64,000 nt of DNA, from the NCBI GenBank assembly GCA_963836235.1, contig CAWIIP010000004.1:448001-512000 (forward strand), given 5' to 3'. Under the pieces are notes generated by a model. The model did no database searches, was not told the origin of the DNA, and saw only the letters and a program-made list of their open reading frames with translations. Positions 34,561 through 51,288 of this stretch are shown in pieces. The DNA is from an uncultured Pseudomonadota bacterium. Its GTDB lineage: Bacteria; Oederibacteriota; Muellerivitia; Muellerivitales; Muellerivitaceae. Position 1 is the stretch's first letter, and every line of letters starts with the position of its first letter. The translations under genes were made by a program, and so were the position numbers.

Positions 34561-35718
34561 ATGGCCTTATACCTCCTATTCTTGCTGCCCGCTTTTTTGA
34601 CCTTGTTTTTGAGTTCGCGGATGGATTCGTTTCGTCTTTTCTGGATTTGGTCATTCATGTCCGTCCTACTTTGCTTATTGGCCCCGAATGGCAGCCAGGA
34701 TTTTAAAAATTACGTTATCGATTACGATTTCGTGAAAAACTTCACCCTGGATAAGGTGGTGACCAAAGACCCGTTGTTCTCTTTGACTACCTATTTTTTT
34801 TCCAGTTCCGGCGTACCGGCGAGTTTTTTTTTATTGAGCCTGGCATGCCTTGCCTTGGGATTGAAATTGGGAGTGGTATCCCAATTGAGCCGCCACTCAC
34901 CTTACGCGATCATTTTTTATGTTTCGTCCTATTTTTTTCTCCATGAATTCACCGAAATAAGAGTCGCTATCGCGATTGGATTCTGGATGTTGGGCTTGCC
35001 TTATTTGATCTCGAACAAGCGAATTTATTATGGGATGGTCTTTTTGGCCATGTTGATTCACTTGCAGGTCGCTGTCGCCGTTCTGATTCCTTTGATGCAG
35101 TATTTATTTTCCACCAAAAGAGGAAGGGTTATCCTTCTGTTTTTGGCCCTTGGGATGATTTTACTGTCACCGACCATGATTTTTGATAGTTTTGGTAAAA
35201 CCCTTCTGGGGCATATTCCAGACGCCCGCGCGGGTGTCTATTTAAAAATGAGCAATCAAGGAATTTGGGTCCGCCCCAACCCTTTTAGCGTCGTATCCCT
35301 TCTGGCGATTGTAACCGCGGGGTTCATTTTCCGAAAACATTGGGAAGAAAGTGCTGGGTTTTGGCGTAATAACTTCGAAATTACCTGTGCGATCAGCCTT
35401 TTGACCGGTGTTTTGTGCCTGGCGTTATTTTCCTCGGTTTCCGTCGCGGCCCTTCGATTAAGCGAATTCTTTTTTTCCTTGCTTCCCATCGCCCTATCCT
35501 TCGCGTTGAACGACCTCAAAAATAAGTTTATCCGGTTAGAGGTTGTCCTGTTATTAACGGCTGTTTTTTCTTTTATTTTCATTTATCACTCGCCTCTTTT
35601 GATCGAACCGGATGGTGTGGGGAATAGCCCGGGGGTATTCTTCTTATGGTTTGTTTTTCTACTTTTGACCCTTGTCCCTTATCCCTCCATCTTCCGTCAG
35701 CAAAAAAAAACGGTTTGA
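34561..35718 (+). CDS. wzy: EpsG/Wzy-family polymerase
   Basis: Multi-TM; DF.NY...Y, DPLF, HEFTEIRVAIAI, IH, RLSEFF. Confidence 0.72.
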   Translation: MALYLLFLLPAFLTLFLSSRMDSFRLFWIWSFMSVLLCLLAPNGSQDFKNYVIDYDFVKNFTLDKVVTKDPLFSLTTYFFSSSGVPASFFLLSLACLALGLKLGVVSQLSRHSPYAIIFYVSSYFFLHEFTEIRVAIAIGFWMLGLPYLISNKRIYYGMVFLAMLIHLQVAVAVLIPLMQYLFSTKRGRVILLFLALGMILLSPTMIFDSFGKTLLGHIPDARAGVYLKMSNQGIWVRPNPFSVVSLLAIVTAGFIFRKHWEESAGFWRNNFEITCAISLLTGVLCLALFSSVSVAALRLSEFFFSLLPIALSFALNDLKNKFIRLEVVLLLTAVFSFIFIYHSPLLIEPDGVGNSPGVFFLWFVFLLLTLVPYPSIFRQQKKTV

Positions 35719-35811
35719 TGGCTATGTGTTTTGGCGTCGCTTAGTATTTAAAGTTAATTTGGAATTTGAGGAAGTTGGCGCTTGTCCGGGAAAAACGCGT
35801 TAAAGGAAGAC

Positions 35812-36564
35812 ATGAAACGTTCCAGCGGGCCGATCTTATCCTTTGTTCTTGCCATCAAAGATCCCATCGAAGCCCAATTCGATGCCTGCGTTTGTTCCAT
35901 GGCGGCATTAAAAAACTCGTCCCGTTTTGATTTAATCGTCGTATCGGCCGGAACAACCCCCAAAATCAACCCGACGGTTAAGAAAAGATTGCATAAGGTA
36001 ACGGTAATTCGGCAAAGGCCTGAGGGTGTTTACTCCGCCTACAACAAAGGGCTGGATTACGTCAAAACCGATTATGTCATGGTCATTGGGTGTGACGATC
36101 TCCTATTGCCCGGACTTGACGATGTGATTGACGCGATCCCACAGGATAGAAAGCCTCACCTGATAGCCGCCTGTTCCTTGATGCAAAACGTCGGAATTTC
36201 AAGGCCCAGCCGCTTTAGGTGGGGGTTGGTATTCCGGAATTGGTGCCAGCAAGGATTGCTCTACCGGTCCGATGTTTTTAAACATAAACGTTTCGATCCA
36301 AAGTATAAAATACAATCCGACCATAAATTCAACATGGAACTGGTGTCGGATGCCCGGACGGAGATTCTCCGGCGGCCTGAAATTGTCGTCCATTTTTCCC
36401 ACCAGGGTTTATCTTCCTCCATTGATTGGGCTTTCATGAAAGACATGCCATCCATCGTGCGTTCCTGCTATGGGAATTTTTTCTGGATGGCCGCCTTGAT
36501 GAAAAGGACGCTTGGCAATCTCGTCAAAGGGCGGTCCATGCCTAACATGAAGTCTTCCGCTTAA
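35812..36564 (+). CDS. GT2 glycosyltransferase
   Basis: GVYSAYNKGL, VIGCDD, CQQGLLY, FDPKYKIQSD; start moved to ATG 35812. Confidence 0.8.
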   Translation: MKRSSGPILSFVLAIKDPIEAQFDACVCSMAALKNSSRFDLIVVSAGTTPKINPTVKKRLHKVTVIRQRPEGVYSAYNKGLDYVKTDYVMVIGCDDLLLPGLDDVIDAIPQDRKPHLIAACSLMQNVGISRPSRFRWGLVFRNWCQQGLLYRSDVFKHKRFDPKYKIQSDHKFNMELVSDARTEILRRPEIVVHFSHQGLSSSIDWAFMKDMPSIVRSCYGNFFWMAALMKRTLGNLVKGRSMPNMKSSA

Positions 36565-36660
36565 AACCCTTTTTAGAATGGGGCGGTTTATCGAAAAGAA
36601 TATGGCCTTTATTGGCGGGCTAAAACGCAGGGCAGCTCGCCATCGAAAAGTGAAAACTCA

Positions 36661-37395
36661 ATGAAAACAAGCGTTTGCATGGCGGTTTATAACGGTTCCG
36701 AGTTCTTGAAAGAACAGTTGACCTCCATTTTAAGACAGATTAAAAAATCGGATGAAGTCGTCATCGTGAACGACGCGTCCCGGGATCATTCCTGGCAGGT
36801 TATCGAAAAGATAGGGGATAAAAGAATAAGATTGTTCCATAATCCCGTAAATTTGGGGCTCATTCGAAGTTTTGAACGGGCCATAGCCCTTGCGGACGGC
36901 GATATCTTGTTTTTATCGGATCAGGATGATGTATGGCTTAAGGGAAAAGTTTCCAAAACACTCGAGGTCTTTAAGCGCTTTAAGCCCCTTGTGGTAGTAT
37001 CGGATGCCGTTCTGGTGGACGCCCAAAAAAAAGTGATCGAAAAATCCTTTTTTTCCATGAGAAATAGTGGCCCCGGAGTTTTCAAAAATATTTATAAAAA
37101 TACCTATATCGGCGCTTGCATGGCTTTTGATTCTAAGGTGAAAGAGTGGATATTGCCCTTCCCTAAAACCATTACGATGCACGATGAGTGGGTGGGAGTT
37201 ACTTGTAATTTTGTGGGCAAGGTTTTCTTTTTTAAAGAACCTCTGATTTATTACCGCCGGCATTTAGGGACTGTGACCAAGGAAAGACGGCTTAAAATGA
37301 ATAAAGTTGTCTTGAATCGAATCAAGTTCTTGATGGCTTTTTTCCAAAGATCGTTGAAACTATTAAAGTGGCGTTGGAAAACTCATCAAGCTTGA
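36661..37395 (+). CDS. GT2 glycosyltransferase (rhamnosyltransferase-like)
   Basis: SVCMAVYNG, DDAS-like VNDASRD, FLSDQDDVW, GACMAF, HDEW, YRRH. Confidence 0.88.
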   Translation: MKTSVCMAVYNGSEFLKEQLTSILRQIKKSDEVVIVNDASRDHSWQVIEKIGDKRIRLFHNPVNLGLIRSFERAIALADGDILFLSDQDDVWLKGKVSKTLEVFKRFKPLVVVSDAVLVDAQKKVIEKSFFSMRNSGPGVFKNIYKNTYIGACMAFDSKVKEWILPFPKTITMHDEWVGVTCNFVGKVFFFKEPLIYYRRHLGTVTKERRLKMNKVVLNRIKFLMAFFQRSLKLLKWRWKTHQA

Positions 37396-37409
37396 AATGT
37401 TTTTAAACA

Positions 37410-38252
37410 ATGCCTCAAAAACAAGTAAATGGATTCACTTCTATGGACGCACTGGTCGATGTAGGGATTATCTTTACCTATGAACGGAATTTCCTAGTTC
37501 CGCTTTTAAAAAGCCTTCCTGGGGCTTGCGGAAGCACACCGTCGCGCCTGATTCTCGTCGACAACAACTCGGGCGCGGATTTGTCCGAGTATGTGACGAT
37601 GGCGCATCCGATTCCGGTTAAAGTTGTTAAAAATCCAGCCCGCCTCAATTATTCCAAAAACCTCAACGTGATCCTCAATAACTCTGACGCTCCATATGTC
37701 TTACTCATGAACACGGACATGCTGTTCGTGGAAGGGGACCCCTGCTTGGACAAAATGGTCCGCTTTATGGAATCCCACCCGGATTGTGGCCTTTCCTGCT
37801 GCCGCCTCATCGGAAAAGAAGGCCAGTTTATGTGGCCCGCCAGGAGATACCAAACACTGGGCACGGTTTTGTCTCGAAGGCTTCCTTTCTTTTTTAACAG
37901 CGAAAAGAGAGTGACCGAATATCTTTACCAACATATGGACCAAAAGGATAGTTTCGATTGTGACTGGGTTTCGGGCTGTTTCATGATGGTGCGGAGAAAG
38001 GCCTTCGAGCAAATCGGACCGGTCGACGAAAAATTCCAGAAATACTTTGAGGACGTGGATTATTGCGCCCGAATGTGGGCCGCGGGCTGGAAAGTGGCCT
38101 ATCACGGGGAAACCACCTGTGTTCATTTGGAGCAAAGGGCCAGTAAGAACCTGTTTTCCAAGGACGCTTTCCACCATCTCAGGAGCTATTTCTATTTCCT
38201 GCTCAAGTGGGGTTTTCGAAAGTTAAAAGGGTCCGAAAATGAAAGATCCTAG
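37410..38252 (+). CDS. GT2 glycosyltransferase (WbbL-like)
   Basis: LVDNNS, LLMNTD, DWVSGCFMMVRR, YFEDVDYC.R. Confidence 0.88.
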   Translation: MPQKQVNGFTSMDALVDVGIIFTYERNFLVPLLKSLPGACGSTPSRLILVDNNSGADLSEYVTMAHPIPVKVVKNPARLNYSKNLNVILNNSDAPYVLLMNTDMLFVEGDPCLDKMVRFMESHPDCGLSCCRLIGKEGQFMWPARRYQTLGTVLSRRLPFFFNSEKRVTEYLYQHMDQKDSFDCDWVSGCFMMVRRKAFEQIGPVDEKFQKYFEDVDYCARMWAAGWKVAYHGETTCVHLEQRASKNLFSKDAFHHLRSYFYFLLKWGFRKLKGSENERS

Positions 38253-38319
38253 ACATTGGCGGGGACACCATGGATTTTGATTTCTTTCGGCTTTTCTTAA
38301 AGTTGAAGGAAAAATCGGA

Positions 38320-38913
38320 GTGAGCCTGTTCAAAAAAATAGGCGCGCTGGCGTTTTTTTTCCTGACAGTGTTGTTGGTTCAATGGGGTTATTTCGTGTCG
38401 GTTTATTCTTCTGTGGTCCAAAATTCTTCTTCCGTCGAACTCATGGTGGTTTACAGCGGCTATACGACTCTCTTTCAAGTATGGGATAAAGCCAATGAAT
38501 TTAAACCGGCCAAACTCCTGATTTCAGGAGTCGATTGGCCCATGAATGAAATCACGGCAACCCGGCCCAAGGAGTGGATCTCTCCCAAACTTTTGGTGGA
38601 GGGCCGAGCCCGAACCACGGATCAGAATGCCAGGTATTCGGCTCCTCTCATTCGAACTTCGGGAGTGAATTCGATAGTATTGTTACGTCCCTGGTTTCAC
38701 CTGCCCCGGGCCCTTTTTTTGACGAGGCTTTACCTCCGGGGAAGCGGCATTCAAGTGACGCCAGTTTTTCTCGGCGGTCTACCGGCCGATTGGTGGCTTC
38801 GGAAAGAATTTTGGTTTGAGATGATCAAGTTTTGGGGAAGCCTGTTCAGGGTTGGTTTAGCCGGGCTTGGAATCGAAGAATGGCCGCAACATTTGGGGAA
38901 ATGGAGTTTTTAA
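38320..38913 (+). CDS. YdcF/DUF218 family protein, copy 3
   Basis: RARTTDQNARYSAP, FHLPRALFLTRLYL.GSG, KFWGSL. Confidence 0.75.
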   Translation: MSLFKKIGALAFFFLTVLLVQWGYFVSVYSSVVQNSSSVELMVVYSGYTTLFQVWDKANEFKPAKLLISGVDWPMNEITATRPKEWISPKLLVEGRARTTDQNARYSAPLIRTSGVNSIVLLRPWFHLPRALFLTRLYLRGSGIQVTPVFLGGLPADWWLRKEFWFEMIKFWGSLFRVGLAGLGIEEWPQHLGKWSF

Positions 38914-39018
38914 ATAACCCGCCGTGCCGAACCGAAACCAGCGCGGAAGGGTGATTGGAAAGAGGCGAGTGTCATATGATGCTTCTGGAAACAAATAAGC
39001 GGATGGGAACAAAAGGCA

Positions 39019-40254
39019 ATGCCTAAAATTTTGGTTTTATGTGAATACTATCATCCGGACGATGTCGCGGCGGCCAAGTTTTACACGGACTTTTGTGAGG
39101 GCCTCACGGATAAAGGCTGGGAAGTGGAAGTTTGGCCCGCGAACCGCAGCTGCCACCATTATCAAGACCAATATCCTCTTCAAAAGGAAGACCGCAATGG
39201 CGTCGTCGTCAGGCGGATCTGGCGTCCCGCCTGGCGCCAACATTCCTTTTGGGGCCGCATCCTTAATTCCCTTTGGACCCAAAAATATTGGTGGTGGCGG
39301 CTCGCCTTTTCGTTCGGCGTCAGGCCGGACGTGATTCTCACCGGAACGGCCCCTCTTTTCGGCATCCTGCTTTCCCCTTTCTTGAGGTTTCTCAGGCCGA
39401 AAGCCCGGATCGTTCATTGGTGTTTCGACCTCTATCCCGAAATCGCGATCGGCGACGGCCTGATTGCCGAAAAGGGAATCATCGCCAAAGTGATCCGGTT
39501 CTTCCTAAAAAGGGCCTACCGCTCCTGTGATCTCGTCGCGGATTTGGGCCCCTGCATGGGGCGGCTTTTAAACCGATATTCCACTAAGCCAAGCGTGACC
39601 CTGAATCTCTGGTCCACGCTGGAACCTCCCGAGCGCTTGGCTTATGAGAGTTCCGAGAGAAGGGAAATCTTCGGGGAAAGCTCCTTAGGCCTCTTTTATT
39701 CCGGAAGTTTTGGAAGGGGACATGATTTTTATTTGACTTTAAAGTTGGCCCGTCTGATGCGTGGCTCCGCCATTTTCACTTATAGCGACCGGGGAAGCCG
39801 CCTGAATGACTTGAAAGGGGCGGTCAACCCGGAGGACACCAACATCCGTTTCGCCCCCTTCGCGCCACCCGACCGCCTTTTAGCGCGGTTATCCGCGCCT
39901 GATGTCCAGATTGTTTCATTAAGGCCCGAATGGTCCGGGATGATGGTGCCGTCCAAGTTTTTTGGCGCCCTGGCCGTGGGCAGGCCCGTTTTGTTTGAGG
40001 GCAGCGAGGATTCCGACATCGCCTTGTGGATCAAGGAATATGGGTTGGGCTGGGTTTTAAAGGCGGATAACCTGGATTTCGTTGCGGAAGAACTTCTTCG
40101 TTTTTCGAAAAATCAAGACCGAAAAAACGACATGTTCAAACATTGCCATGAAATCTACCAAGCCCATTTCACCAAAAAAGCCGTCATGGACAAGTGGGAT
40201 TATGAGTTGAGAGCCCTCCTTTCCCCAACGCCACTCACCAACCAAGAAAAATGA
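39019..40254 (+). CDS. GT4 glycosyltransferase (WcaI/WbuB-like), copy 2
   Basis: Colinear paralog of 19775..20980: YYHPDD, WCFDLYPE, VPSKFFGALAVGRP. Confidence 0.85.
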   Translation: MPKILVLCEYYHPDDVAAAKFYTDFCEGLTDKGWEVEVWPANRSCHHYQDQYPLQKEDRNGVVVRRIWRPAWRQHSFWGRILNSLWTQKYWWWRLAFSFGVRPDVILTGTAPLFGILLSPFLRFLRPKARIVHWCFDLYPEIAIGDGLIAEKGIIAKVIRFFLKRAYRSCDLVADLGPCMGRLLNRYSTKPSVTLNLWSTLEPPERLAYESSERREIFGESSLGLFYSGSFGRGHDFYLTLKLARLMRGSAIFTYSDRGSRLNDLKGAVNPEDTNIRFAPFAPPDRLLARLSAPDVQIVSLRPEWSGMMVPSKFFGALAVGRPVLFEGSEDSDIALWIKEYGLGWVLKADNLDFVAEELLRFSKNQDRKNDMFKHCHEIYQAHFTKKAVMDKWDYELRALLSPTPLTNQEK

Positions 40255-40570
40255 GACATCAAAAGATGAAGGATCCATTGCCCGAATGTGATGAAAGCCG
40301 GGGACGCCGGACTTTTAGGTCCGTCACGGCTAGTTTTTGGTGAGGTGCTCCTTTTCGTTGATAACCCCCCGCCAGCTTCGCGCCTTTTGGGTAACCGCCA
40401 ACCATTAAAAAACGGACAATTTATGGGCTATGAACCGCTTGGGTTAAAGCGAAAACCTTTTTTTCCTAAAATTTTATTTGACGAAAAACATTTTTTGGAA
40501 ATATCCTCCCCGCCATCAAGCTTCTTTAAAAATTTCATGGGCTTGAAATTTATTTTCTGGAGGAACGTTT

Positions 40571-41992
40571 ATGGAACCGATTTTGCTTCAAATCCCTGTC
40601 GCCAGGATAAGACCCAACCCCAACAACTCCCGCCCAGTGATTACCCACGAAATGATCGAGATCAAGAAAGCCTCACTCGAGGCCGACGGCCAGTTGGACC
40701 CCATCAAGGTTCGACCCCTCACCCAGGAGGAAAAGGCTTCCGACCCGGAGCATGACTATGAGCTCATCGGGGGCCATATCCGGCTGGAGGCCGCCAAAAG
40801 CCTGGGCTGGGAAACCTTGAGGGCTTTGGTCTTTGCCTATACCCCCGCCGAAGCCGTCCTGCCTGGCATCATGGACAACAAGGGCCAGGAAAGGCATTGG
40901 TTCTGTAAGTACCTGGATATCGAAGTCTTGTTGAAGGTATACCCGGACCTCTCCCAAAGACAGCTGGCCAACCGGCTGGAAATGAGCAAAACCGTCATAA
41001 ACGAAGGTTTAAAACTATTAAAGTTCCTTAATCCATCCGCAAGGGAGTTGGTTGTCCGCACTGCGAACATAACAGAGCCTGCTACGACCTCAAGTGTCCG
41101 CAGTGCGGACACTACGGAACCTTCAAAAGCCTCAGATGTCCGCACTGCGGACACCATGGAGACGCCAGAAGACCCATGGGAGCTGGCGGAAGCCCCCGTC
41201 TATTGCCTCATGGACCTGGCGAACCCTCAAATGTCCTTGGAAGATATCCAGGACCTCATCTTAAAAGCCTTAAAAGTGGTCATTGACCGTCAAATGAGCG
41301 AATCCCAGGTGGAAAAACTGGTCGTTTGGATTGAAAAGGGCAACAGCCCCGAAAGTTTTGAGGATAAGGCTGAGCAGGTTCCTAACGAGGACCCCAACGA
41401 CCCCCATTCCTCTTATTGGACGGCCCTCCCCCCAAACGTCAAGGTAACCCGGACCAAAAAGGGATATGAAGTGCACGCCTCCCTGGCCCATAACGAGGGA
41501 GTACCGGTGGTTTATGGGATGTTGTCGAACCTCGAACACCTCAAACTGTTGTCGAAGGAACCCCATGACCCGCAATTCCGAAGCAAGCTGGAAGGGGTGA
41601 TGGAAGAGGGGAGAAAAGCCCGGATCACCGCGAGGGAAGAGGTGGCCAAACAGGAAGCGGAACGCCAGGCGGCCCTTCAAGCGAAGGCCCAAGCCAAGGC
41701 CCGAAAGGTGGAAGCGAAAGCCCAGAAAGCTGCCGCACGGAAACAGGGTAGGCAAACAACAGCCGATTCGGCCAAGCCCACTTTGACAAATGGGGAAGGG
41801 GAGGGATTTGTGGAAAAAACATCCCGGGTAAGCCTATGGGTTCGAATCGCGGAAATACTGAAGCAAAAGACCGGCATGGATGGGGGTGATGTGGTGGATG
41901 CCGTCGAGGGCAACCTTTGGAAAGACCTTAAGTCAGCGATTAATACCGTCATTAAGCAAATCATACGACGGTTTTTGAAACGAGCGTTTTAA
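40571..41992 (+). CDS. Orphan ParB/Srx-domain DNA-binding protein with internal repeat and long C-terminal region
   Basis: IPVARIRPNPNNSR, SL..DGQLDPIKVR, YELIGGHIRLEAAKSLGWETL, HTH LSQRQLANRLEMSKTVINE; GGAGG Shine-Dalgarno; no parA nearby. Confidence 0.82.
   Translation: MEPILLQIPVARIRPNPNNSRPVITHEMIEIKKASLEADGQLDPIKVRPLTQEEKASDPEHDYELIGGHIRLEAAKSLGWETLRALVFAYTPAEAVLPGIMDNKGQERHWFCKYLDIEVLLKVYPDLSQRQLANRLEMSKTVINEGLKLLKFLNPSARELVVRTANITEPATTSSVRSADTTEPSKASDVRTADTMETPEDPWELAEAPVYCLMDLANPQMSLEDIQDLILKALKVVIDRQMSESQVEKLVVWIEKGNSPESFEDKAEQVPNEDPNDPHSSYWTALPPNVKVTRTKKGYEVHASLAHNEGVPVVYGMLSNLEHLKLLSKEPHDPQFRSKLEGVMEEGRKARITAREEVAKQEAERQAALQAKAQAKARKVEAKAQKAAARKQGRQTTADSAKPTLTNGEGEGFVEKTSRVSLWVRIAEILKQKTGMDGGDVVDAVEGNLWKDLKSAINTVIKQIIRRFLKRAF
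41053..41153. repeat. Three 17-bp palindromes at 42-bp period inside the ParB-like gene
   Basis: TGTCCGCA-C-TGCGAACA (41053-41069), TGTCCGCA-G-TGCGGACA (41095-41111), TGTCCGCA-C-TGCGGACA (41137-41153). Confidence 0.95.
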
Positions 41993-42043
41993 GGAAATGG
42001 TTTTTGACCAGACCACTTCAATTTTGGTTAAAGGACTCGTTTG

Positions 42044-42079
42044 GGACGCGAACCCCCGCTGAAGGGGTTCGCTCCTTTT
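42044..42079 (+). terminator. Probable intrinsic terminator after the ParB-like gene
   Basis: Stem GCGAACCCC (42048-42056) / GGGGTTCGC (42064-42072), extendable by GGA/TCC, followed by TTTT. Confidence 0.55.
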
Positions 42080-42543
42080 AACCCATTGGTCCGGGTAGAA
42101 AGGATTCGCCAGGCCGGACACCGATTTTCAGAGTAGTTATAATCTTCGGAACATTCGGAAACTTCTGCTAATCAACAACCTGACGAGAAGCTTAACGAAT
42201 CAAGACGTGGCTGTCTTCGGCACTTGCATTGCGGCCTCAAAAGCGGTATCAAGATTTAATGTGGGGATAGCTTATATGCCCGGGGTGGCCTCCGGGTTTA
42301 TGGCCGCTTTGGGGGAATAAAGGGGCGTACTTGGGGTGATGGGCGGAAAGAGTAGTTGGTGTATGGTTCACGGATTGTTATCATCCCATGAGACGTTTTT
42401 CTGCCAAGCGGGACTGAACGGGTATAAATTTTTGACCTTAATGGAAAATCGAAGCGACCCATGAAAAGCGGGCGGAAAATCGCAGTACTTATTTCAGGAC
42501 CAATTTTCAAAACTGATTACCGCAGTATGAACCGGAGTTTGTC

Positions 42544-43889
42544 ATGTTAAAAAACGAACAGACATACACTATTATTGATCATTCGAAATTAAAATTTTAC
42601 GTGTTTGTTCTTTTCTGTTTTATGTTCAGTTTACGATTACTCATCATTTTATGGCAGCCAATGAGTGACAAATACTACAGCGATAAAAGTTATGACATCA
42701 GTGAGTTTTTTCACGGAGGACAGTTAATCAACCATGGTATTAATCCATATAATTGGAATGATAATCCCCAGGAAAGATATAAGCTTCATATGGAATCTTT
42801 TCCAAACGATCCAATGATTCCAACTTCGCAAGAACAGTGGAATTTTCAAACGAGTGCCAATTTACCGTTGACACTCATTTTTGATGCAGCATTAGATAAA
42901 TTATTTCCCAATAACCCATTCATATTTCGCATAGCCTTTGCAATAGCCGATTCCCTGGCTGGTGTATTTATTTTTCTTTATATCATTAGGTATTGGGAAA
43001 TTGTTCCAAATTTTAAAAATAAATTATTTATCCTGGGGCTTTGTTGTCCGCTGATATTTCTTTATGAGGGAACCGTGTGGGGCGAGGATAAAGGTGTTCA
43101 AATCCTTTTAATGTTGATGGCAATTTATTACAGCCGCTCCTCGAATAAAATGATCAGGTTATATCTAAGCCCAATCTTTCTCGGTATGAGCGTCGCTTTC
43201 AAAGCAATAGGCATTTTTATCGCGCCAATATGTTTGTATTATGTCTTTATTGAAAAAAATAATGCGAAAACGAAGAATGTTTTAAACTATTTAATGATTA
43301 GCCTTTCCATTGTGCTTATAAGTTTAACCCCCTTTTTCCCAGATGAATTTACGATGATAAAAGTACGCTTGTCAAAGGGTCTTTCCTGTTCTGAGGGCCC
43401 ATTTTCCGCTTCCATGTGGAGGATATTTTGCGAATTAACGCCAACCCTATGGCTTCAAATAAAATTATTTTTTTCATTATTTTTTATGGGGTTGATCTTA
43501 TATGGCTTTGTGCGTCGGATTTTTTCCTTGGAAATAATAACAGCGTCTTTACTTTTGTTGTTCGTGGTGGTTCTTCTTATTGATGGAGGCATGGACCGTT
43601 ACAATATGGCGGTATTAACGTCTTTGGTTATCATGGGCCATAAAAATTTAACCTATGTTTTTTGGCTTGGATGGTATTACATCCTTGGCGGAGCATTTTT
43701 GTTTTTTACTTAGCATTAATAAAAATGCATAAAGTTTTCCCTTTATTCCCTACATTAAGCTTTTTAGGTCAAGATTATTTGGAAAGCTTGCTTTTGCTCG
43801 GATTTATTTTTTTATTTGTAATTCAAATGATTTCATTTTGTTTAAACTCAAATAAAATCAATGCTGAACAATATTCCTTTTCGAAGTAA
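42544..43889 (+). pseudogene. Multi-TM GT-C-like membrane protein, apparently frameshifted near the 3' end
   Basis: ORF 42544..43713 (G.NPY, LPL, GMSVAFK) stops just after a T6 run (43702-43707). One extra T joins it to the hydrophobic frame ending at 43889. Confidence 0.55.
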
Positions 43890-43901
43890 ACATTTGTCGT
43901 C

Positions 43902-43927
43902 AATGGCGACCCATTCGGGTCGCCATT
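43902..43927. terminator. Perfect 11-bp hairpin between convergent genes
   Basis: AATGGCGACCC-attc-GGGTCGCCATT, 12 nt after the stop at 43889. Confidence 0.55.
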
Positions 43928-44104
43928 TGGGCGAGTCTCTAAACCCCACGGTGTTGCGAGGTGGGGCCCCTGTCCTCCTGTTAATTTTTATCCAGTTTTT
44001 TGATGATATGCCCAATAATTAGGGATTCATACTGGCCACCCAGCGGCAATGGTCCCCCTCGGGGTGATACACTCCGCCGCTTCGTCCACGCAAACGACTA
44101 AACT

Positions 44105-44188
44105 GCGGCTATCCACAGCATTACCCACAATGTTTTCCACGAATGATTTCAAACGCTTTTAAACTCCACAAGGTTTTTGATGATGGCC
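44105..44188. repeat. 84-bp direct repeat, copy A
   Basis: Ungapped match to 45524-45607, 70/84 identical by manual count. Confidence 0.85.
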
Positions 44189-44241
44189 CGGCGGAAAATC
44201 ATTAAAAGGATTGTATGGTTAATCAAACGCTTAATTCCGTT

Positions 44242-45474
44242 TTAAAATTTCCACGGCCGGGCGATAGGATTAACTTCCATCGTCCGGACGACCATAACTA
44301 AACAACAAAAAGTGGTTAAAAACCAGGTTCCCGCCACCACCCAGTCATAGGTGTGAAAAACGGCGTCGTGCTGTCCCCCAACCATGGCTAAACGAAACCG
44401 ATCGGGGCACCATGTTAAGAATATGCCGAGAATCAGCAAAATTTTAAACCATTGATCCTTAAAGAAGGACTTAAACAGGAGCAAGGTCGGAAAAATCAAA
44501 AACACATAATTCGTAATTTCATTGTATACAACGGTCATCGCCACAAAAGAAAGCATGCTCAAGATTAGTAGATCGTCCGTCGTTCTATTCAAGAAACAAA
44601 TCCAGGCCGCGGCAGAAAGCAGAATTACGGATAGTAAGAAAGGTAAATACGAAGGGACATGAAGACCGCTGGATGCAAAAAAGGCAAAAAAATCAAGATA
44701 GCCTCCACTTAACATGTCTGAATCGAGTTTTAAAACTTCCGCGATCAGAGTAAATGGATTGACGTTGATCCAAAAGGAAACGAACAAGTGCAAGCCCAAG
44801 TGAACCGCTAAGGCGATCAGCAAAGGGCGGAATTGCCTTTTGTAAAGGAAATAAAGAGAGAAAGGAATCATGACTTGCGGTTTAATGAATGATAGGGCCA
44901 GGAAAAACCCGGAAAGGTTCGGTTTGGTGTCGAGATACCTCAACGCGTAAGAGAAAAAGCAAAGACAAAATATTGATTGTTGACCGAAACCGACAACGGT
45001 TCTCCAGGGGGAACCTATCAAGAACAAACAACAAATAGATAAATAAACCTGGAGCGGTCTTTTCCCTAAAAAGGTCTTGAAAACATTAAAAAGGGATAAA
45101 AAGGTGAACAAAAGATTGGACGCCAACCATAAATATTTCGCCGCAGTCCAGGGGAAGGCCGCGTAGGGCCATAAAAGCATATAGCCGGATGGAAAATAGT
45201 GTGGATCCTGAAAATGCGGATCTTGATAAGTTGGATCATGAAATCCCTTGCGTTTCGTGGTTTCCGAGATTTGATGCGAGATGCAGATTTGATACGGATC
45301 GTTTCTATCCAATAAAATTCGGGCCTTGTCCCATTCAAAATCCATGCTATCAATAGGTTTCGAAGTTGCGTCGTGGATTCCTTTTGTGCCGGCCATCGTT
45401 GCCAGAAAAATTAAAATGACCGGAATGATGAATTTGTATTTTAAAATAATTGCATCAACTTTCTCAGGCATCAT
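44242..45474 (-). CDS. GT87/DUF2029-like membrane glycosyltransferase, copy 1
   Basis: DF.W..A..LL...DPY, PHYFPS...LLWPYA..PW..AK.LW...N, GQQS, LALSFIKP. Confidence 0.72.
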   Translation of the reverse strand: MMPEKVDAIILKYKFIIPVILIFLATMAGTKGIHDATSKPIDSMDFEWDKARILLDRNDPYQICISHQISETTKRKGFHDPTYQDPHFQDPHYFPSGYMLLWPYAAFPWTAAKYLWLASNLLFTFLSLFNVFKTFLGKRPLQVYLSICCLFLIGSPWRTVVGFGQQSIFCLCFFSYALRYLDTKPNLSGFFLALSFIKPQVMIPFSLYFLYKRQFRPLLIALAVHLGLHLFVSFWINVNPFTLIAEVLKLDSDMLSGGYLDFFAFFASSGLHVPSYLPFLLSVILLSAAAWICFLNRTTDDLLILSMLSFVAMTVVYNEITNYVFLIFPTLLLFKSFFKDQWFKILLILGIFLTWCPDRFRLAMVGGQHDAVFHTYDWVVAGTWFLTTFCCLVMVVRTMEVNPIARPWKF

Positions 45475-45523
45475 TCAGTTGTTTTCCATTCCTATGACCG
45501 TCAATCTGAAAACTTCCAGCAAA

Positions 45524-45607
45524 GCGGTTATCCAAGGCATCACCCAGAATGTTTTCCACTGATGATTTCAACCTATTTTTATCTCCACGAGATTTTTGAT
45601 GATGGCC
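45524..45607. repeat. 84-bp direct repeat, copy B
   Basis: Ungapped match to 44105-44188. Confidence 0.85.
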
Positions 45608-45721
45608 ACCGGTAAAACCTTAACAGGATAATACCATCATCCCCTTGAGAATAGTTTTCTAACGGTCAAATTACATCATCCGCCCAGTCAGGGCGGTGTT
45701 GGCTTCATCTTATTGATCGTT

Positions 45722-46633
45722 TTAATCAGATCGGCTTCGCTGGGATAAAATTCTAAAGAAGGCTTTGGCGATTGAAATGATTTCGTTGGGCCATAGAAAT
45801 GGAATGAGCCGAAAGCGTTTTTTGAGAAGGGCCATTACCTCGGCTGATTTTCGCTCATGAATTGCCTCCACGAGTAAGTTGGTATAACGCCTGCCTTTGA
45901 AATAAACGGCCGCGCGCCATCCGAGTTCCTCACGAATCCGGTCATAATGGCGCAGATAATTTTCTAAAGCCTTTGTCTTATATTCATAGGCGTTTTTGTT
46001 CAAAGAAGTATCGAGGTGGACTAGGGCCAGAACTTCAGGGATCACGGCCAGTTGAAAATCAAAAAATATCCTTTGGAGGAATTCATCATCCTCGCTGTCA
46101 CGAAATTCGGCTACCAAACCGGCTTTCATCAGGCAAATTCGCCGGAATAATACGATCGGAGTCAAAAATCCGATCTTATCCAGGACGAATTGACGAAGCG
46201 TATCCCGCTCCCAAGCTTTTCGGGGGCTGTAAAAGGCCGGATGATGGGTATCCCCGTTTTTGATGATTTTGGCCCCACAGAAGCAAACCCCTATCTCCGG
46301 CGGTTCCTTCTCCATTCTTTCCACCTGCTTGGCCAATTTGTCGGGCAGCCACTCATCGTCGCTGTCAAGAAACGCGATATAGTCACCTTGAGCCGCTTTC
46401 AACCCAAGGTTGCGGGCGGCTCCCGGCCCCTGGTTTTTCGGGTTAATAAGCCATTTGATTCGGGTGTCTTTTTCAAGGTAAGGTTTGACGACTTGTCCCG
46501 TTTTATCGGTCGAGGCATCATCGCAGATGAATATTTCGATGTCTTTTAAGGTTTGATTTTGAGCGCTTAGTAAAGCCCGTTCAATCATCGAGGCGCGGTT
46601 ATAAGTTGGAATGATCACCGACACTTTTGGCAT
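45722..46633 (-). CDS. GT2 glycosyltransferase
   Basis: VSVIIPTYNR, DDASTD, GPGAARNLG, AFLDSDDEW. Confidence 0.9.
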   Translation of the reverse strand: MPKVSVIIPTYNRASMIERALLSAQNQTLKDIEIFICDDASTDKTGQVVKPYLEKDTRIKWLINPKNQGPGAARNLGLKAAQGDYIAFLDSDDEWLPDKLAKQVERMEKEPPEIGVCFCGAKIIKNGDTHHPAFYSPRKAWERDTLRQFVLDKIGFLTPIVLFRRICLMKAGLVAEFRDSEDDEFLQRIFFDFQLAVIPEVLALVHLDTSLNKNAYEYKTKALENYLRHYDRIREELGWRAAVYFKGRRYTNLLVEAIHERKSAEVMALLKKRFRLIPFLWPNEIISIAKAFFRILSQRSRSD

Positions 46634-46985
46634 TTAAAAGGTTCCGCCCGCAAGTTGATGGACTAATTCTAGCCCGGCCATTATCCTTCGGAATTTCATC
46701 TTCGGAAGAACGAAAAATATTTATTCTTGTTTTCCGCCGCCGCACCGCATTCGGTTGCGGGAAATCCTGAATCGATAAGGGCTATTCCGGAAAAAACCGC
46801 AAATTTTGCAAAGGCCTCCAGGATCAAATCGCAAGGAATTGCTTTCAGAAAAACCCGATTCAGGGAAACCGTGCCGGATTTGATATAATTAAAGAATGCG
46901 AATGGGACTATCCGGGAAAAACCTTGCTTTTTTCAACTTTCTCCGGGAATATTGACGAAGATTCAACCACAACGCCTTCATTTGA

Positions 46986-47987
46986 ATGAGCGAAATCAGG
47001 AGAAAACCAGTGGATTCACCCAAAAATATCATAAAGAAATTGTCCGATAAATTGGGTTATGAGATTTCACGAAGACCCAAGAATTATTATAAATCAACAA
47101 TAAACCCATCCGATAAATCCGACCTAAAAAAGAATGATAATATCAATATCATTCAAATAGAAACTATTAGTACCTGCAACGCGACTTGTTCTTATTGTCC
47201 GCGCGGTGTATTTCCGAAATTAATGAATAAGAGGTTTTTAACGTATGAAATATTAAACCGCGCTTTGGAATTGGCTAAACAAGGTAACGCAAAAGTTATG
47301 GTGCTTCACCATGCCGGCGAACCTTTTTTGCATCCTGAATTAGCGGGGATGGTAAAGGTTGTCCGAGAAGCGGGTTTTTTCGCGCATTTATCCTCTAACT
47401 TAATTAGCTTTAACCCGGTGAAAATAGCCGATGTCTTAAAGGCGGGTTTAAACGAGTTTGTAATCCACTTAAGCGCGGGGCTTACAAAGATTGATCTGGA
47501 GGAAATGCTCAAGAGAATACACGAGGTGAGACGGTTAAATTGGGAGCTTAGGAACAATGGTTGTAAAATTGTCGTTACTTTCGTGATGAATGAGGACAGC
47601 CCAGCGGCGAACTATTCGGAGTTCTTAAAAAGCAACTATTTTGATGACTCTTTGCCTATTAACTACATACAAGCCCATGATTGGCCGGAACTCATTTCAC
47701 TTAAGAATAAGGGAATCGATCCCAAGAAATGTAATTGGTATAAAACGCGTTCCGCTTCTATTTTGGCGAACGGAGATTTAGTTATTTGCTGTCTCGATCA
47801 GTTCGGGGCCTCGAAAAAAGTCAATATTATGGATATAGACAAACTTTCTTGGGAATATTTAAGTAATCGGAATTTATGCAAAGGTTGTACGCAATATAAA
47901 TCGATGGATAATTGGATCGAGAATGAATGTTTATCAGTTCCTGATTGGCTATCCGCCCGACAAAAGTACGATTCTTGGAAAATGTAG
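46986..47987 (+). CDS. Radical SAM / SPASM(twitch) protein
   Basis: IETISTCNATCSYCPR (CxxxCxxC), GEPFLHP, C...ANGDLVICCLD...CKGC. Confidence 0.85.
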   Translation: MSEIRRKPVDSPKNIIKKLSDKLGYEISRRPKNYYKSTINPSDKSDLKKNDNINIIQIETISTCNATCSYCPRGVFPKLMNKRFLTYEILNRALELAKQGNAKVMVLHHAGEPFLHPELAGMVKVVREAGFFAHLSSNLISFNPVKIADVLKAGLNEFVIHLSAGLTKIDLEEMLKRIHEVRRLNWELRNNGCKIVVTFVMNEDSPAANYSEFLKSNYFDDSLPINYIQAHDWPELISLKNKGIDPKKCNWYKTRSASILANGDLVICCLDQFGASKKVNIMDIDKLSWEYLSNRNLCKGCTQYKSMDNWIENECLSVPDWLSARQKYDSWKM

Positions 47988-48067
47988 CCACTGTAAAAAT
48001 ATTGACCGGCCTCCGTTATGCTTTTCTCATCTCACACCATAAGATTTAATCAATCCGGCCCCTGCCA

Positions 48068-49600
48068 CTATCCTTCATAATTTTGTCTCCGGAAGTATGA
48101 AAAACATTTATTCTTGATTTTCGCCGCCTCGGTTCTGCCTTCCTTTGTGGCTAGTCCCGAAACGATGAGGGTTATTCCGGACCAAGCCGCCAATCTTACA
48201 ATGACCCCCAGTTTCGAATCGCAATGGATGGGAAAGAAACCCATTAGAATGCCCATGGCACCTAAAGCCGACGCAACCGGCAATAGGTCATGAAGCATCC
48301 AGGTTTTGTGGAGGCCCGGCAAAAAATGATGATGAACCAGGGGTACCCAAGCTAATAAATATAGGAGGTTGACCAACATCCAAGCAAAGGAGGCCCCCCG
48401 CATGCCGTATTGGGATACCGCCCAAGTCATGGCGGGAACCAGGACCAAGAGGAAAAAAAAGGATCCCCGCATGAGAAAGCGTAGATCCCCGCGGGCCACT
48501 TGCAAGACATATTGCATGTCCGAAATCGCCAAGAAAGCGTAACCCAACCCGGAGAACGCCAGTACCGGGGCCGCCGAGACTGAAAGGTCCATGTCGCCCG
48601 TCCAGACCCAAAGGATACTCTGGGGATATGCCGCCAAAATCACCGCGGCCGAACCCGCGAGGACGGCGACCATCCGCGTGGTTTTTCCGTAAAGGAACAA
48701 AAAACCCGAATCGTCCTTTTTCGACGCTAAAAGAGTCAAGCGGGGAATAACCGCCTGGGTGATCGCCCCCATCATCATATGAACCCCGGAGGCCGCCAAT
48801 GCCGCCACGGAGTAGTAGGCGTATTTCGACAGGGGCAACAGCCGGGTTAATATCAGCTTGTCCGTTTGGGACGTGGCCAACCAAATCAAGGATAAAGCGG
48901 ATGAGCTTAAGGCGAAACCCCGGAGATCCAAAATGGGCGCCAGGGACCAAGACCGTTTTTCTCCCTGGGGCCAGCCCGGAAGAAGCCGATGAGTGACCGA
49001 TCTCAAAAAAAGCAATTCAATGGCCGCCATGAGCGCCTGGAACAGGAAAAAGTTCCTTGGCGTGGCCCCAATAAACATGAAAACCGGGAGAACGCCAATG
49101 AAACGCAAGGTTGCCATGATGACATTGATGATATTCAGCCAAACCTGTCTCTCGAAACCCGCCAGGATGCTTCGGTAAATTTCAGCGGGCCAGCGCAACG
49201 CGAAAACAAGGCCCATGAGTACGATCGCGGTTCTTACCTCCTCCCATGAGAGGGCCTCAATCTTCAGCCAATGGCTCGTGATGAACCCTGATAAAGCGGC
49301 CACGGCAAGAACGACGGCCAAACCGGTTCCGGAAAACAAGAGAAGAATCAGCCTTAAAAGCGACCGGAATTCGCCGGGCTTCACGGCCCCCCCACGGTAA
49401 CGGGCGGCCACCCAGGCGAAGGCTGGCGTCAAACCTAAATCCAGCAAGGCCAACCAACCGCTCAGTACGGCATAAAAACCGACAAGGCCATAGGCTTCCT
49501 TGCCCAAGTAACGTAAAAAAACCGGTACCATGACCATACCGATGATGGCCGTATAAACTTTGCCAATATAGTTCGCCACCACATTATGTTTGAGAGACAT
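48068..49600 (-). CDS. wzx: Oligosaccharide flippase, third
   Basis: NVVANYIG, LGKEAYGLVGF, LLDLGL.P, TDKLIL..LLPL..Y.YY. Confidence 0.85.
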   Translation of the reverse strand: MSLKHNVVANYIGKVYTAIIGMVMVPVFLRYLGKEAYGLVGFYAVLSGWLALLDLGLTPAFAWVAARYRGGAVKPGEFRSLLRLILLLFSGTGLAVVLAVAALSGFITSHWLKIEALSWEEVRTAIVLMGLVFALRWPAEIYRSILAGFERQVWLNIINVIMATLRFIGVLPVFMFIGATPRNFFLFQALMAAIELLFLRSVTHRLLPGWPQGEKRSWSLAPILDLRGFALSSSALSLIWLATSQTDKLILTRLLPLSKYAYYSVAALAASGVHMMMGAITQAVIPRLTLLASKKDDSGFLFLYGKTTRMVAVLAGSAAVILAAYPQSILWVWTGDMDLSVSAAPVLAFSGLGYAFLAISDMQYVLQVARGDLRFLMRGSFFFLLVLVPAMTWAVSQYGMRGASFAWMLVNLLYLLAWVPLVHHHFLPGLHKTWMLHDLLPVASALGAMGILMGFFPIHCDSKLGVIVRLAAWSGITLIVSGLATKEGRTEAAKIKNKCFSYFRRQNYEG

Positions 49601-49662
49601 ATGATCCTATTCGGAGCCGGTTCAATAGCAGTGGCACATTGAAAGAATAGAAGAGTTCATTT

Positions 49663-51288
49663 CTATTTTTCGCAGAAATAAATTTCACCCGTTTCAGGGG
49701 TTAATAAGCCCATTCTAACGGCGTCATCTCTCCCGATAAAATCATCCACTTTGGTGACGGTTACTTTAAAATCCGCTTCACGAAGCCTTTCTGCGTAATC
49801 GGGGCCATAAACCCGGACCGAATCGGCCTCGCTATAGGCTTTAAGCCGGTCTGCGGGTTTCTGGAGAAGGGGATCTTCATGGGTCTTTTTCGCGTAAACC
49901 GGCGCCAATAAGATGGCCCAGCCATCCTTTTTGAGGACCCGGTAAAATTCCCTTAGGGCCATCCGATCATCCTTCACTTCCTGCAATACGTGGTTGCAAA
50001 AGATCACGTCGAAAGTTTGATCAGGGTATTGGATGTCCGTGACATCCATTTTGACCCTGACGTTGGGATTATGTAAATCGGCGGTTACGTAATCCTCTTC
50101 GAAAGTTATCGAGAGAGAGGGTTCAAAGCAGCTTTCCGGCGCTATGTGCAGTATCTTCTTGGGTTTTCCATCCCAAAGATTGGTCTTTTGGTTGAGGTAT
50201 AACCACAAAAGGCGATGACGGCCATGGGAAAAACAAAAAGCACATTCCACAGCCTCAAAGGGGACGAAACCGTCGGTGTAAGCTCGAAAACAGCGGGACG
50301 TTTTTCCACAGACCGGGCAGAATCTTTGATTTCCAGAATAATAAGCCTGATTCCATAGGTTTTGAATTCTTCTGATGGATTTTTTTATAAATCTTGGCAA
50401 AAGTTTCGAAATTTTCCTTCTCGTTTTAAACGAGAAGGTTTTTAAGTCCGCCGAGAAAGAGGATGGTGTCCCCACTTCCTCAAAACCCGAGGTGGGGCAC
50501 GAAGAAATAGAAATCAATTGAATAGCCCGCATTTCGATCCACCCCCGGACCTCGGGATCCGTCACCAGCGACTGATCAATCACCCGGTAAGTACGGGCCC
50601 AATGGAAATCCCGATGGGAAGGACCGCACATTTTATCGAGGGCGTGGTCATCCATCGCGCAGTGGCATTGCCACAAGTGGTGACCCGGGCCCAGGGAGTC
50701 GATCCAGGACTTTAGCTTTTTCTTTACGACTTCCCGGTCCAGTGATACCCCGCTGGACTCGAAAGCTGAAACCCAATCTGTCCGGGGAATGTGATGTTTC
50801 TTAGCATATTCCCTGTTTCGGGAAGGGGTCTTTTTTCGCCTGAGAAACTGGGCGAGAAGGCCGGCCAGTTTTCCCCAGCGGTCCATATGCATGTGCTCGC
50901 AGGCATGGGTAATGCTCAAGCCTTCGGCTTCAATGCGGTTCCATTGGGCCTCAAGCTCCGTCTCGGCCTCACGCATGTCAGCCTTTTTCCAGGCTTCCTT
51001 GACGGTAAAGGGGAAGGTTCCATCCGGTAGTGTCATGGACTTCAAAGGGGTCAAGGGTTTCCAGCGCAGGACATCCCATTCGGCAGTGAAGGTCACGTGG
51101 ATTCCAACGGGGATTTTATGAGTTTTGGCCAACTGAACCGCAGCCGGAAACGCAGGCGCGGGGGCCATGAGGTTGGTATCAGTCAGGAGGCCTTTCGTAA
51201 AGGCTTGGACAATGCCCTCGTTGACCGCGTCGCACATTCCAAAATCGTCGCTCATGACCGACAAGTAAATCTTAGTGTCCTCCGGCAT
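49663..51288 (-). CDS. Fusion: ChbG/YdjC-family carbohydrate deacetylase + SAM-dependent methyltransferase
   Basis: N-terminal SDDFGM...VNEGI, VGIHVTF, THACEHMH; C-terminal CPVCG..CAFC..RHRLLWLYL, ILHIAPE, FDVIFCNHVL, RVLKKDGWAIL. Confidence 0.8.
   Translation of the reverse strand: MPEDTKIYLSVMSDDFGMCDAVNEGIVQAFTKGLLTDTNLMAPAPAFPAAVQLAKTHKIPVGIHVTFTAEWDVLRWKPLTPLKSMTLPDGTFPFTVKEAWKKADMREAETELEAQWNRIEAEGLSITHACEHMHMDRWGKLAGLLAQFLRRKKTPSRNREYAKKHHIPRTDWVSAFESSGVSLDREVVKKKLKSWIDSLGPGHHLWQCHCAMDDHALDKMCGPSHRDFHWARTYRVIDQSLVTDPEVRGWIEMRAIQLISISSCPTSGFEEVGTPSSFSADLKTFSFKTRRKISKLLPRFIKKSIRRIQNLWNQAYYSGNQRFCPVCGKTSRCFRAYTDGFVPFEAVECAFCFSHGRHRLLWLYLNQKTNLWDGKPKKILHIAPESCFEPSLSITFEEDYVTADLHNPNVRVKMDVTDIQYPDQTFDVIFCNHVLQEVKDDRMALREFYRVLKKDGWAILLAPVYAKKTHEDPLLQKPADRLKAYSEADSVRVYGPDYAERLREADFKVTVTKVDDFIGRDDAVRMGLLTPETGEIYFCEK

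Follow-up and report, generated by a model that had tools for sequence, protein, structure and literature searches.

Palindromes at a codon-fixed position inside a family of ParB-fold genes are candidate docking sites for the encoded proteins

We examined a 64-kb stretch of an uncultured bacterial genome (the window; contig CAWIIP010000004.1, positions 448,001 to 512,000), which contains a gene of the ParB/Noc/KorB fold at 40571–41992 on the forward strand. This ParB-like gene encodes a 473-residue protein (P0001), identified from the open reading frame (ORF) list, Pfam, AlphaFold, Foldseek and NCBIfam, and carries within its reading frame three palindromes of the pattern TGTCCGCA(C/G)TGCGGACA. 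Judged from sequence, the three palindromes probably serve the product of their own gene as cognate parS-like docking sites. Across the gene family the position of the site is fixed, with its centre on the second base of the fourth codon after a helix of the form LNxxxRxL and then every 14 codons. According to the structural model, the codons that carry the sites encode a disordered loop of the DNA-binding domain, which follows immediately on the helix-turn-helix (HTH).

The palindrome centres lie at 41061, 41103 and 41145, exactly 42 bp apart. Their positions are given below relative to an anchor, the last base of the LNxxxRxL helix (41050 in the window), which was placed by tblastn. Site 1 (TGTCCGCACTGCGAACA, 41053–41069, centre at anchor +11) has one mismatch, site 2 (AGTGTCCGCAGTGCGGACACT, 41093–41113, centre at +53) is a perfect 10+1+10 palindrome around the core TGTCCGCAGTGCGGACA at 41095–41111, and site 3 (TGTCCGCACTGCGGACA, 41137–41153, centre at +95) is a perfect 8+1+8 palindrome; none is assigned a strand. 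The search of the window with this pattern reproduced the position of the array, its centres and spacing, the 10-bp arms of site 2 and the mismatch of site 1, all as claimed in an earlier note on this DNA. No further match was present in the 64-kb window at up to three mismatches, where 0.15 matches are expected by chance and 0/100 shuffles gave three or more. The right half of site 1 is a variant half-site present at two intergenic places of the genome, and site 1 is a hybrid of both half-site versions.

Between units, the palindromes share 15/17, 16/17 and 16/17 bases and the spacers 14/25, 10/25 and 14/25 (one-sided Fisher p of 0.027, 0.0003 and 0.007), so the earlier note was right that the palindromes are much better conserved than the spacers. 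The array units are old, as the divergence of the spacers relative to the palindromes indicates, and Tandem Repeats Finder did not report the 42-bp array since its units are too diverged. In frame, the array reads VVRTANITEPATTS / SVRSADTTEPSKAS / DVRTADTMETPEDP, three 14-codon units spanning 41051–41176. Inside the palindromes all five third-codon positions are identical across the three copies, and the two non-synonymous differences are T/S at the free centre base and D/N in site 1. Thus, the synonymous positions are fixed while two amino acids change, and the constraint is not on the array peptide.

The genome contains ten non-canonical ParB-like loci in addition to its canonical ParB, as found by tblastn. 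Eight of the ten have a perfect palindrome directly after the LNxxxRxL helix, with arms of 8–12 nt and a 1-nt centre, for example ATTTATAAAACTTTTATAAAT, AGTGTTTCCTCAGGAAACACT, AATTATTCCGATTCGGAATAATT and TAATTATTCGGATTCCGAATAATTA. These amount to seven distinct sequences, since two copies are near-identical. AATTATTCCGATTCGGAATAATT and TAATTATTCGGATTCCGAATAATTA differ by a CC/GG swap mirrored in both arms, which changes the peptide from IPIRN to IRIPN. For comparison, the whole 3.97-Mb genome holds 101 palindromes with arms of at least 10.

A protein search of 40 related genomes gave matches in 29 (30/41 including this genome), some of them to canonical ParB only, and the matches per genome ranged from 1 (canonical ParB only) to 20. 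We analysed the DNA of 59 loci from the relatives (L006–L064), which together with the local loci gave 75 anchors, 69 of them non-canonical (from this genome and 14 relatives) and six from canonical ParB genes used as controls. L006 was left out, its alignment having ended more than 12 residues short of the anchor; a 10+1+10 palindrome lies about 50 nt past its match. Perfect palindromes were sought from −12 to +190 nt of each anchor with a loop of at most 5, and the expectation was taken from the rest of the same loci. At an arm of at least 7, 56/69 members had a perfect palindrome (0.17 expected per window), and the counts were 48/69 at an arm of at least 8 (0.10), 37/69 at 9 or more (0.06) and 23/69 at 10 or more (0.04). 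Restricting the loop to 3 left 51/69, 46/69 and 23/69 members at arms of at least 7, 8 and 10, and under this limit 2/6 canonical ParB controls contained a palindrome, GC-rich and unrelated. An intragenic palindrome at the same position in homologs, which the earlier note had proposed looking for, is therefore present in 56 of the 69 members, which supports the note's reading of the array.

The palindromes fall on a lattice. Their centres lie at +11 in 32 cases, at +53 in 11 and at +95 in 6, and the +11 position corresponds to the middle base of the fourth codon past the anchor. L025 and L026 have their centres at 56, 98 and 140, a shift of one codon. Consecutive lattice sites are always 42 or 84 bp apart (window gene, L009, L025/L026, L051, L059 and L060), and 48/77 palindromes have a single-base centre. 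At this fixed position the palindrome sequences differ from paralog to paralog, and it is this diversity that makes the family counts informative. The earlier note had named homologs that keep the peptide repeat in non-palindromic codons as evidence against its claim. None was seen; the peptide is not conserved at all, and alignments break at about residues 163–200.

The same lattice can be recognised at the protein level. In a full HMMER scan of 1.84 billion representatives, the family matched 899 proteins at E ≤ 1e-3, 202 at 1e-10 and 65 at 1e-30, and most of the metagenomic alignments break at about residues 163–200. The anchor could be mapped in 139 of 149 listed proteins. For these we asked whether the seven residues that follow could be encoded as a perfect 21-nt palindrome, that is, as three reverse-complement codon pairs and a self-complementary centre codon. 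At offset 0 the residues were fully encodable in 37/139 proteins and satisfied at least three of the four criteria in 93/139, and at an offset of +14 residues the values were 17/137 and 44/137. Full encodability fell to 7 and 4 proteins at offsets +13 and +15 and to 4 at +28, and the remaining 71 of the 76 offsets gave 0–3. Since the peaks stand at 0 and +14, the 14-codon lattice is a property of the whole family.

Compensatory change within one subfamily points to DNA as the level of selection. We aligned 17 sequences that share an ungapped 23-bp site of the form AATTG-6-N-6-CAATT, in which 98.9% of 187 cells are Watson-Crick or G-T paired and changes occur on both sides in 9/11 pairs (41 cells). 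None of 500 shuffles reached any of four covariation measures, and sliding the partner by 1–3 columns reduced pairing to 15–44%. The peptides are set by codon complementarity, with V/N, A/C, W/P, G/S, S/A and D/I pairs around a central N, I or T. Thus, the site sequence varies while paired substitutions keep the dyad, and selection acts on the DNA with the peptide following. The claim of a low-complexity linker under selection as DNA is in this way upheld by the covariation, by the fixed third-codon positions and by the low model confidence of the encoded loop described next.

P0001 is arranged as a ParB_N domain, an HTH DNA-binding domain, the palindrome-coded loop, a helical middle domain, a long helix and a basic C-terminal helix. 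The N-terminal Srx/CTPase-type domain (residues 6–103, 40586–40879, forward strand) scores 33.9 bits with PF02195 (cut-off 26.3). Next come the HTH segment and a further helix ending in LNPSAREL (residues 153–160), together encoded at 40922–41050 on the forward strand and placed by Pfam, AlphaFold and the family alignment. The Pfam HTH_11 match is weak (residues 118–153, E of 0.042), with the array directly after it, and AlphaFold helices 140–152 and 155–166 precede the array-coded segment. The AlphaFold2 model, built from a 67-sequence alignment, has a mean predicted local distance difference test (pLDDT) of 85.3. Residues 171–200, between model helices 155–166 and 207–216, have block means of 48, 52 and 58, with values of 84–98 on either side; therefore the array encodes a loop that the model cannot place. 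As delimited by pLDDT, the low-confidence loop (residues 167–206, codons 41069–41188 on the forward strand) is overlapped by the three 14-codon units and sits between the helix after the HTH and the next helix of the DNA-binding domain.

Foldseek aligned about 250 columns of the model to Noc, ParB bound to cytidine triphosphate (CTP) or diphosphate, Spo0J and KorB (E of 1e-10 to 1e-7, with about 1e-10 for nucleotide-bound ParB and Noc), which places the loop inside the DNA-binding domain. Alignment with the canonical ParB of the genome identifies LNPSAREL as the helix after the recognition helix, and the segment after the loop, ELAEAPVYCLMDL, as the helix carrying the G-H-A-R residues. In Caulobacter ParB, helix α6 (G201, R204) is described as contacting parS (PMC7383237). 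By this alignment, the palindrome-coded loop would lie next to the expected DNA interface. With motifs defined as in PMC12409273, the GxxR motif is G68..R71, and G68, R71, N103 and W110 are all invariant in the family. A strongly hydrophobic 19-residue segment is present in 69/149 metagenomic representatives and in 4/10 local paralogs; P0001 has no such segment and ends in a basic helix (residues 450–472).

A scan of the genome with PF13614 and PF01656 found no ParA-type gene near any of the ten non-canonical paralogs. The matches lie beside the canonical ParB (C5:296108–296788) and at eight further places, of which the nearest to any paralog (C4:476561–476956, in a 582-residue open frame) is about 12 kb from the gene. 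The canonical pair on C5 is the sole case in the genome of a ParA adjoining a ParB. The system is not a ParA-driven partition system.

We propose that a dimer would bind each palindrome through its HTH, and that the 42-bp spacing, about four helical turns, would set adjacent dimers on the same side of the double helix and allow them to nucleate cooperatively. With the site within about 100 bp of the recognition-helix codons, protein and site would form one inseparable module that can be duplicated and transferred, which would account both for the many mutually distinct copies in one genome and for a cassette of one gene that is gained and lost. Once docked, the protein might load as a CTP-gated clamp and slide, regulate its own gene as a roadblock, or tether the locus to the membrane.

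The predicted sites also have copies outside the genes. Within the genome, the 17-mer has no occurrence beyond two gene copies, to which two symmetric variants are added: a 21-bp perfect palindrome at C4:953172–953192 (intergenic), one mirrored change from site 2, and a 17-bp form of the same variant at C2:1300117–1300133 (intergenic). A 19-bp identical copy of the site of paralog C1:140993 is intergenic at C2:2047126. Among the relatives, the L009 site has two perfect 19-bp copies elsewhere in G016, the L025 site has a mirrored variant in G014, and the L007 site has no copy elsewhere in G013. The earlier note had called the gene a candidate self-contained parB/parS unit; the intragenic array stands, but 'self-contained' is too strong, as identical or symmetric-variant palindromes are also intergenic. 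A genome-wide repeat of the repetitive extragenic palindrome or miniature inverted-repeat transposable element kind was rejected, the 17-mer being confined to the two gene copies and the two symmetric variants. The strict canonical parS pattern TGTTNCACGTGNAACA (consensus of PMC12409273) has zero matches in this genome, from which we draw no conclusion.

The surroundings of these copies vary. The one at C2:2047126–2047146 belongs to a longer GC-rich hairpin with a T-run behind it, and an IS200/RAYT-like ORF lies about 550 bp downstream; the one at C2:1300117 comes after three repeats of ATTGCGACATAA. The extragenic copies of the L009 site (L162 and L163, at G016 C42:71913 and C47:66190) share about 45 bp of flank, including a second palindrome, TTCAGA-T-TCTGAA, and belong to a small repeated element.

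Several observations weigh against docking by the encoded protein. At 13/69 anchors there is no perfect palindrome; seven of these are 'CHEG'-type modules, four being the second modules of two-module ORFs. The members are related, so that the counts are not independent, and they include near-identical pairs (the two copies in this genome, L025/L026, L010/L013 and L036/L037). In P0001 itself the position of the ENxxR motif reads D102-N103-K-G-Q, without the arginine; several relatives have DNxxR. The NCBIfam parB_part model TIGR00180 gives 47.5 bits, below its cut-off of 58.45. Some of the extragenic copies lie within longer terminator-like hairpins. Co-variation of the palindrome with the recognition residues of the HTH, which the earlier note had proposed as a check, is present but not specific: site distance correlates with recognition-helix distance at r of 0.38, compared to 0.50 for the rest of the HTH block and 0.37 for the N-terminal domain, and Mantel and partial Mantel tests of reader against site were positive but unspecific. 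Since the recognition helix correlates no better than other parts of the protein, these data do not demonstrate that reader and site have specifically co-evolved. A natural chimera, L056 (G009 C56), combines an N-terminal domain 52–56% identical to the 'SGQRR' subfamily with an HTH block 71–72% identical to the 'LTPASRxLIY' subfamily, and its palindrome is that of the same second subfamily. Judging by this sequence, the HTH-plus-site block appears to be the unit of exchange, but adjacency alone predicts that HTH and site move together.

A different explanation is that the palindromes act in the mRNA, where stability, ribosome pausing or processing sites would tune the amount of protein and the DNA symmetry would be a by-product; we regard this as improbable. 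The compensatory changes described above would keep RNA stems as well as DNA dyads, and a coding-region stem-loop at the 5' end of Caulobacter parB is reported to set the ParB level (bioRxiv 10.64898/2026.07.07.737113). The array also folds strongly as RNA (−51.5 kcal/mol, z of −4.2, 0/200 shuffles as good), because sites 2 and 3 are mutually complementary; this too counts against docking on DNA and makes an mRNA role conceivable for this gene. However, the pairing does not favour G-U: G-T mismatches make up 7/49 non-Watson-Crick positions, where 8 are expected if mismatch types were equal, and G-U-type pairs account for 4/187 cells of the covariation set. Across the family hairpin stability is not conserved, as energies range from −17.5 to −3.0 kcal/mol at a GC content of 4–74%, with 9/46 weaker than −6, and the usual 1-nt centre is impossible as a hairpin loop. 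Furthermore, identical palindromes recur in intergenic DNA, the exact 42-bp phasing has no obvious RNA rationale, and the array matched no Rfam family, giving only a sub-threshold miRNA match.

The next alternative concerns the mobility of the gene. In a same-genus genome, G001 (80% complete), both flanks are present with about 50 bp between them and the segment corresponding to about 40406–42140 of the window is absent, which defines a single-gene cassette of about 1.7 kb (promoter, gene and terminator, forward strand) with approximate boundaries, extended by eye from the junction alignments. The flanks align to window 37000–40365 at 85% (80% over 40000–40365) and to 42144–42240 at 74%, and canonical ParB is the only protein match in G001. 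A second copy of the gene at C2:814036–815310 is 99.1% identical over 1275 bp (window 40442–41716), with the same array and a different 3' end, and the copies have zero differences across window 40927–41532, which spans the array. Considering the whole paralog (C2:814036–815628, window 40442–41995), identity runs from 129 bp upstream of the start to about codon 382, beyond which the sequences are unalignable and then 82% identical over the last 154 bp. The second copy looks like a recent gene conversion, or a duplication with a swapped C-terminal region.

These features suit palindromes that serve as targets of something beyond docking of the encoded protein, either a site at which the gene is nicked or recombined so as to be copied or moved, or the site of a separate host or partner protein. 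Nucleases are among the proteins with the ParB_N fold, and in addition to the discrete 1.7-kb indel and the second copy with its different 3' end, the variable number of matches per genome (1, canonical ParB only, to 20) and the two-module form with a palindrome in one module only would fit. We nevertheless think this explanation quite unlikely. The sites differ between paralogs of one genome and so cannot mediate exchange among them, and with sites this diverse any reader would have to be equally diverse, which points to the cis-encoded protein. Identity between the two copies breaks off at window 41716, 560 bp away from the array, the cassette contains no recombinase or transposase, no target duplication or terminal repeat was seen by eye at the junctions, and PADLOC returned no match.

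An ordinary in-frame triplication of a low-complexity linker with an incidental palindrome, perhaps a remnant of zinc-ribbon coding, can be practically dismissed: the spacers are recognisably homologous (14/25) as in an old duplication, the +3 frame reads C-P-H-C-E-H ... C-P-Q-C-G-H ... C-P-H-C-G-H, three CPxC(G/E)H knuckles 14 residues apart, and a genuine CPQCGH-coding stretch at C2:930725 matches the pattern with two mismatches, but the palindromes are far better kept than the spacers, all synonymous positions included, a stop codon lies directly upstream in the +3 frame with no ORF of at least 60 residues there, the palindromes of relatives at the same codon position are unrelated and encode no CxxC, and neither the family-wide lattice nor the covariation can be incidental. 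The alternative frame (CPxCGH three times) and a minus-strand ORF of 106 residues at 40837–41157 were accordingly rejected as coding sequences, given the upstream stop and the unrelated palindromes of relatives. As a separate observation, a CPxCGH zinc-knuckle codon string (window 41053–41153, +3 frame) can be its own reverse complement.

We compared the predicted self-docking of P0001 to known systems. The F-plasmid sopC site is an array of 43-bp repeats, each with a short inverted repeat; it is non-coding, lies downstream of sopB, has 12 units and works with SopA. The array described here is likewise a tandem, helically phased series of palindromic sites, here putative ones of the ParB type, linked to the gene of the binder, but consists of three 42-bp units, in frame and inside the ORF.

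The principle of a site inside the gene of its own binder is already published. ParT of the Streptomyces coelicolor plasmid SCP2, a CTP-independent ParB-like protein without a CTPase domain, is reported to load at an 18-bp inverted repeat inside its own coding sequence, as demonstrated by chromatin immunoprecipitation sequencing, biolayer interferometry and a synonymously recoded allele (Sukhoverkov et al., PNAS 2025, PMC12260392). We located this repeat in SCP2.04c (the ParT gene) at nt 428–445 (residues 143–149), just after the presumed recognition helix as placed by eye. Both are therefore ParB-fold proteins with a palindromic site inside their own coding sequence, established in silico for P0001 and experimentally for ParT. 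They differ in that ParT has a short helical N domain in place of ParB_N/CTPase, an adjacent ParA and one even-length site, whereas P0001 has a full ParB_N, no ParA and three sites of odd length at 42-bp intervals. P0001 and ParT share no detectable sequence similarity (best BLASTP E of 0.41, hhalign family alignment probability of 0.9%), and a family-wide codon-fixed site or arrays are not described for ParT in the accessible text of PMC12260392.

In Bacillus subtilis, parS-359 is reported to lie within parB (PMC4442127), and in Pseudomonas aeruginosa 9/10 parS sites are given as lying in coding sequence (PMC4368675). B. subtilis ParB/Spo0J thus resembles P0001 as a ParB_N and HTH protein with a palindromic parS inside its own gene, but parS-359 is one of several identical origin-region sites in ParA/SMC-linked segregation, whereas in the P0001 family each paralog has its own site sequence, the position is fixed by the HTH and there is no ParA. 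BisD-bisS of ICEclc, KorB-OB of RK2 and Noc-NBS also use the ParB fold without ParA-driven segregation, and Noc and KorB are the best or close structural matches of the P0001 model in Foldseek. This structural likeness to Noc is real, but the Noc model TIGR04285 gives 47.3 bits, below its cut-off of 315. The bisS sites, located in two genes, are described as 11+1+11 palindromes (PMC12409273), a format shared by the 23-bp sites of one subfamily here (subfamily A). For BisD, KorB and Noc, however, the sites lie in other genes or promoters and not in the ORF of the binder.

Relative to the published cases of ParT and parS-359, what is new here is a ParB_N-bearing family without a ParA partner and in multiple copies (with matches reaching about 20 in one genome), arrays phased on a codon-fixed 42-bp lattice that grow in 42-bp steps, and a 1.7-kb single-gene cassette absent in a congener, with cassette-like mobility. 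A full-text literature search turned up no account of either a family-wide codon-fixed intragenic site or in-frame arrays with 42-bp spacing; the datasets of the ParT paper might bear on this point. The ParT case is extended to CTPase-domain proteins without ParA, to a codon-fixed site position across a family, and to a site number that grows by 14-codon steps with helical phase kept.

It is possible, and we put this forward only tentatively, that the family represents a general 'self-addressed' architecture built from one gene. Each ParB-fold protein would have its docking palindrome in the codons of the loop beside the DNA-contacting helix, giving indivisible site-reader modules that duplicate, diverge into orthogonal pairs (up to about 20 per genome), move as a 1.7-kb cassette and serve as ParA-free locus markers or tethers. 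If so, the hydrophobic, membrane-type segment in nearly half of the family would fit tethers, and the 42-bp phased arrays would give cooperative nucleation. The palindrome-coded peptide may also touch the palindrome, as a direct physical link between the DNA site and the residues that it encodes. In this family, dozens of ParB-fold proteins each come with a presumptive site on a single 1.5-kb fragment. They form a natural library from which to read how ParB/Noc-type domains encode DNA specificity, and this library suits orthogonal DNA-labelling or tethering tools. The family also raises the question of what use a bacterium has for ten or twenty independent proteins, each a marker of its own gene and many with membrane-type segments.

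Finally, we considered the surroundings of the gene. It stands alone within a polysaccharide-synthesis cluster (window 34561–51288) that includes EpsG, several GT2/GT4 glycosyltransferases, GT87, a flippase-type Polysacc_synt protein and a YdjC-methyltransferase fusion. Ahead of the start codon, 40478–40507 on the forward strand matches a sigma-70-like promoter (TTGACG-18-TATCCT) by consensus only, with 2 such matches found against 1.2 expected, and 56 bp past the stop a terminator-like hairpin followed by a T-rich tail (42048–42072, forward strand) is a pattern match only, with 3 found against 4.5 expected. Plasmid and phage collections gave N-terminal matches of about 30% to generic ParB in 55 plasmid and 2 phage records, none of which covered 80% of the query.

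Some family members contain two ParB_N and HTH units in one frame (L035, L041, L052, L054, L038 and L011). L035, L041, L052 and L054 have a 23-bp palindrome in the first module and none in the second, which is of the '...CHEG...' type. The second module of L038 is of another type with a palindrome at +89, and L011 has none in either module. The C-terminal halves of paralogs C1:140993, C1:368806 and C5:41360 contain a recurring motif, AQPxxGP(Q/R)xxASAQ, which at the DNA level is no genome-wide repeat. The last residues are -LGF in three of the local paralogs and -FGF in one, and GF is the commonest ending among the 149 representatives (11).

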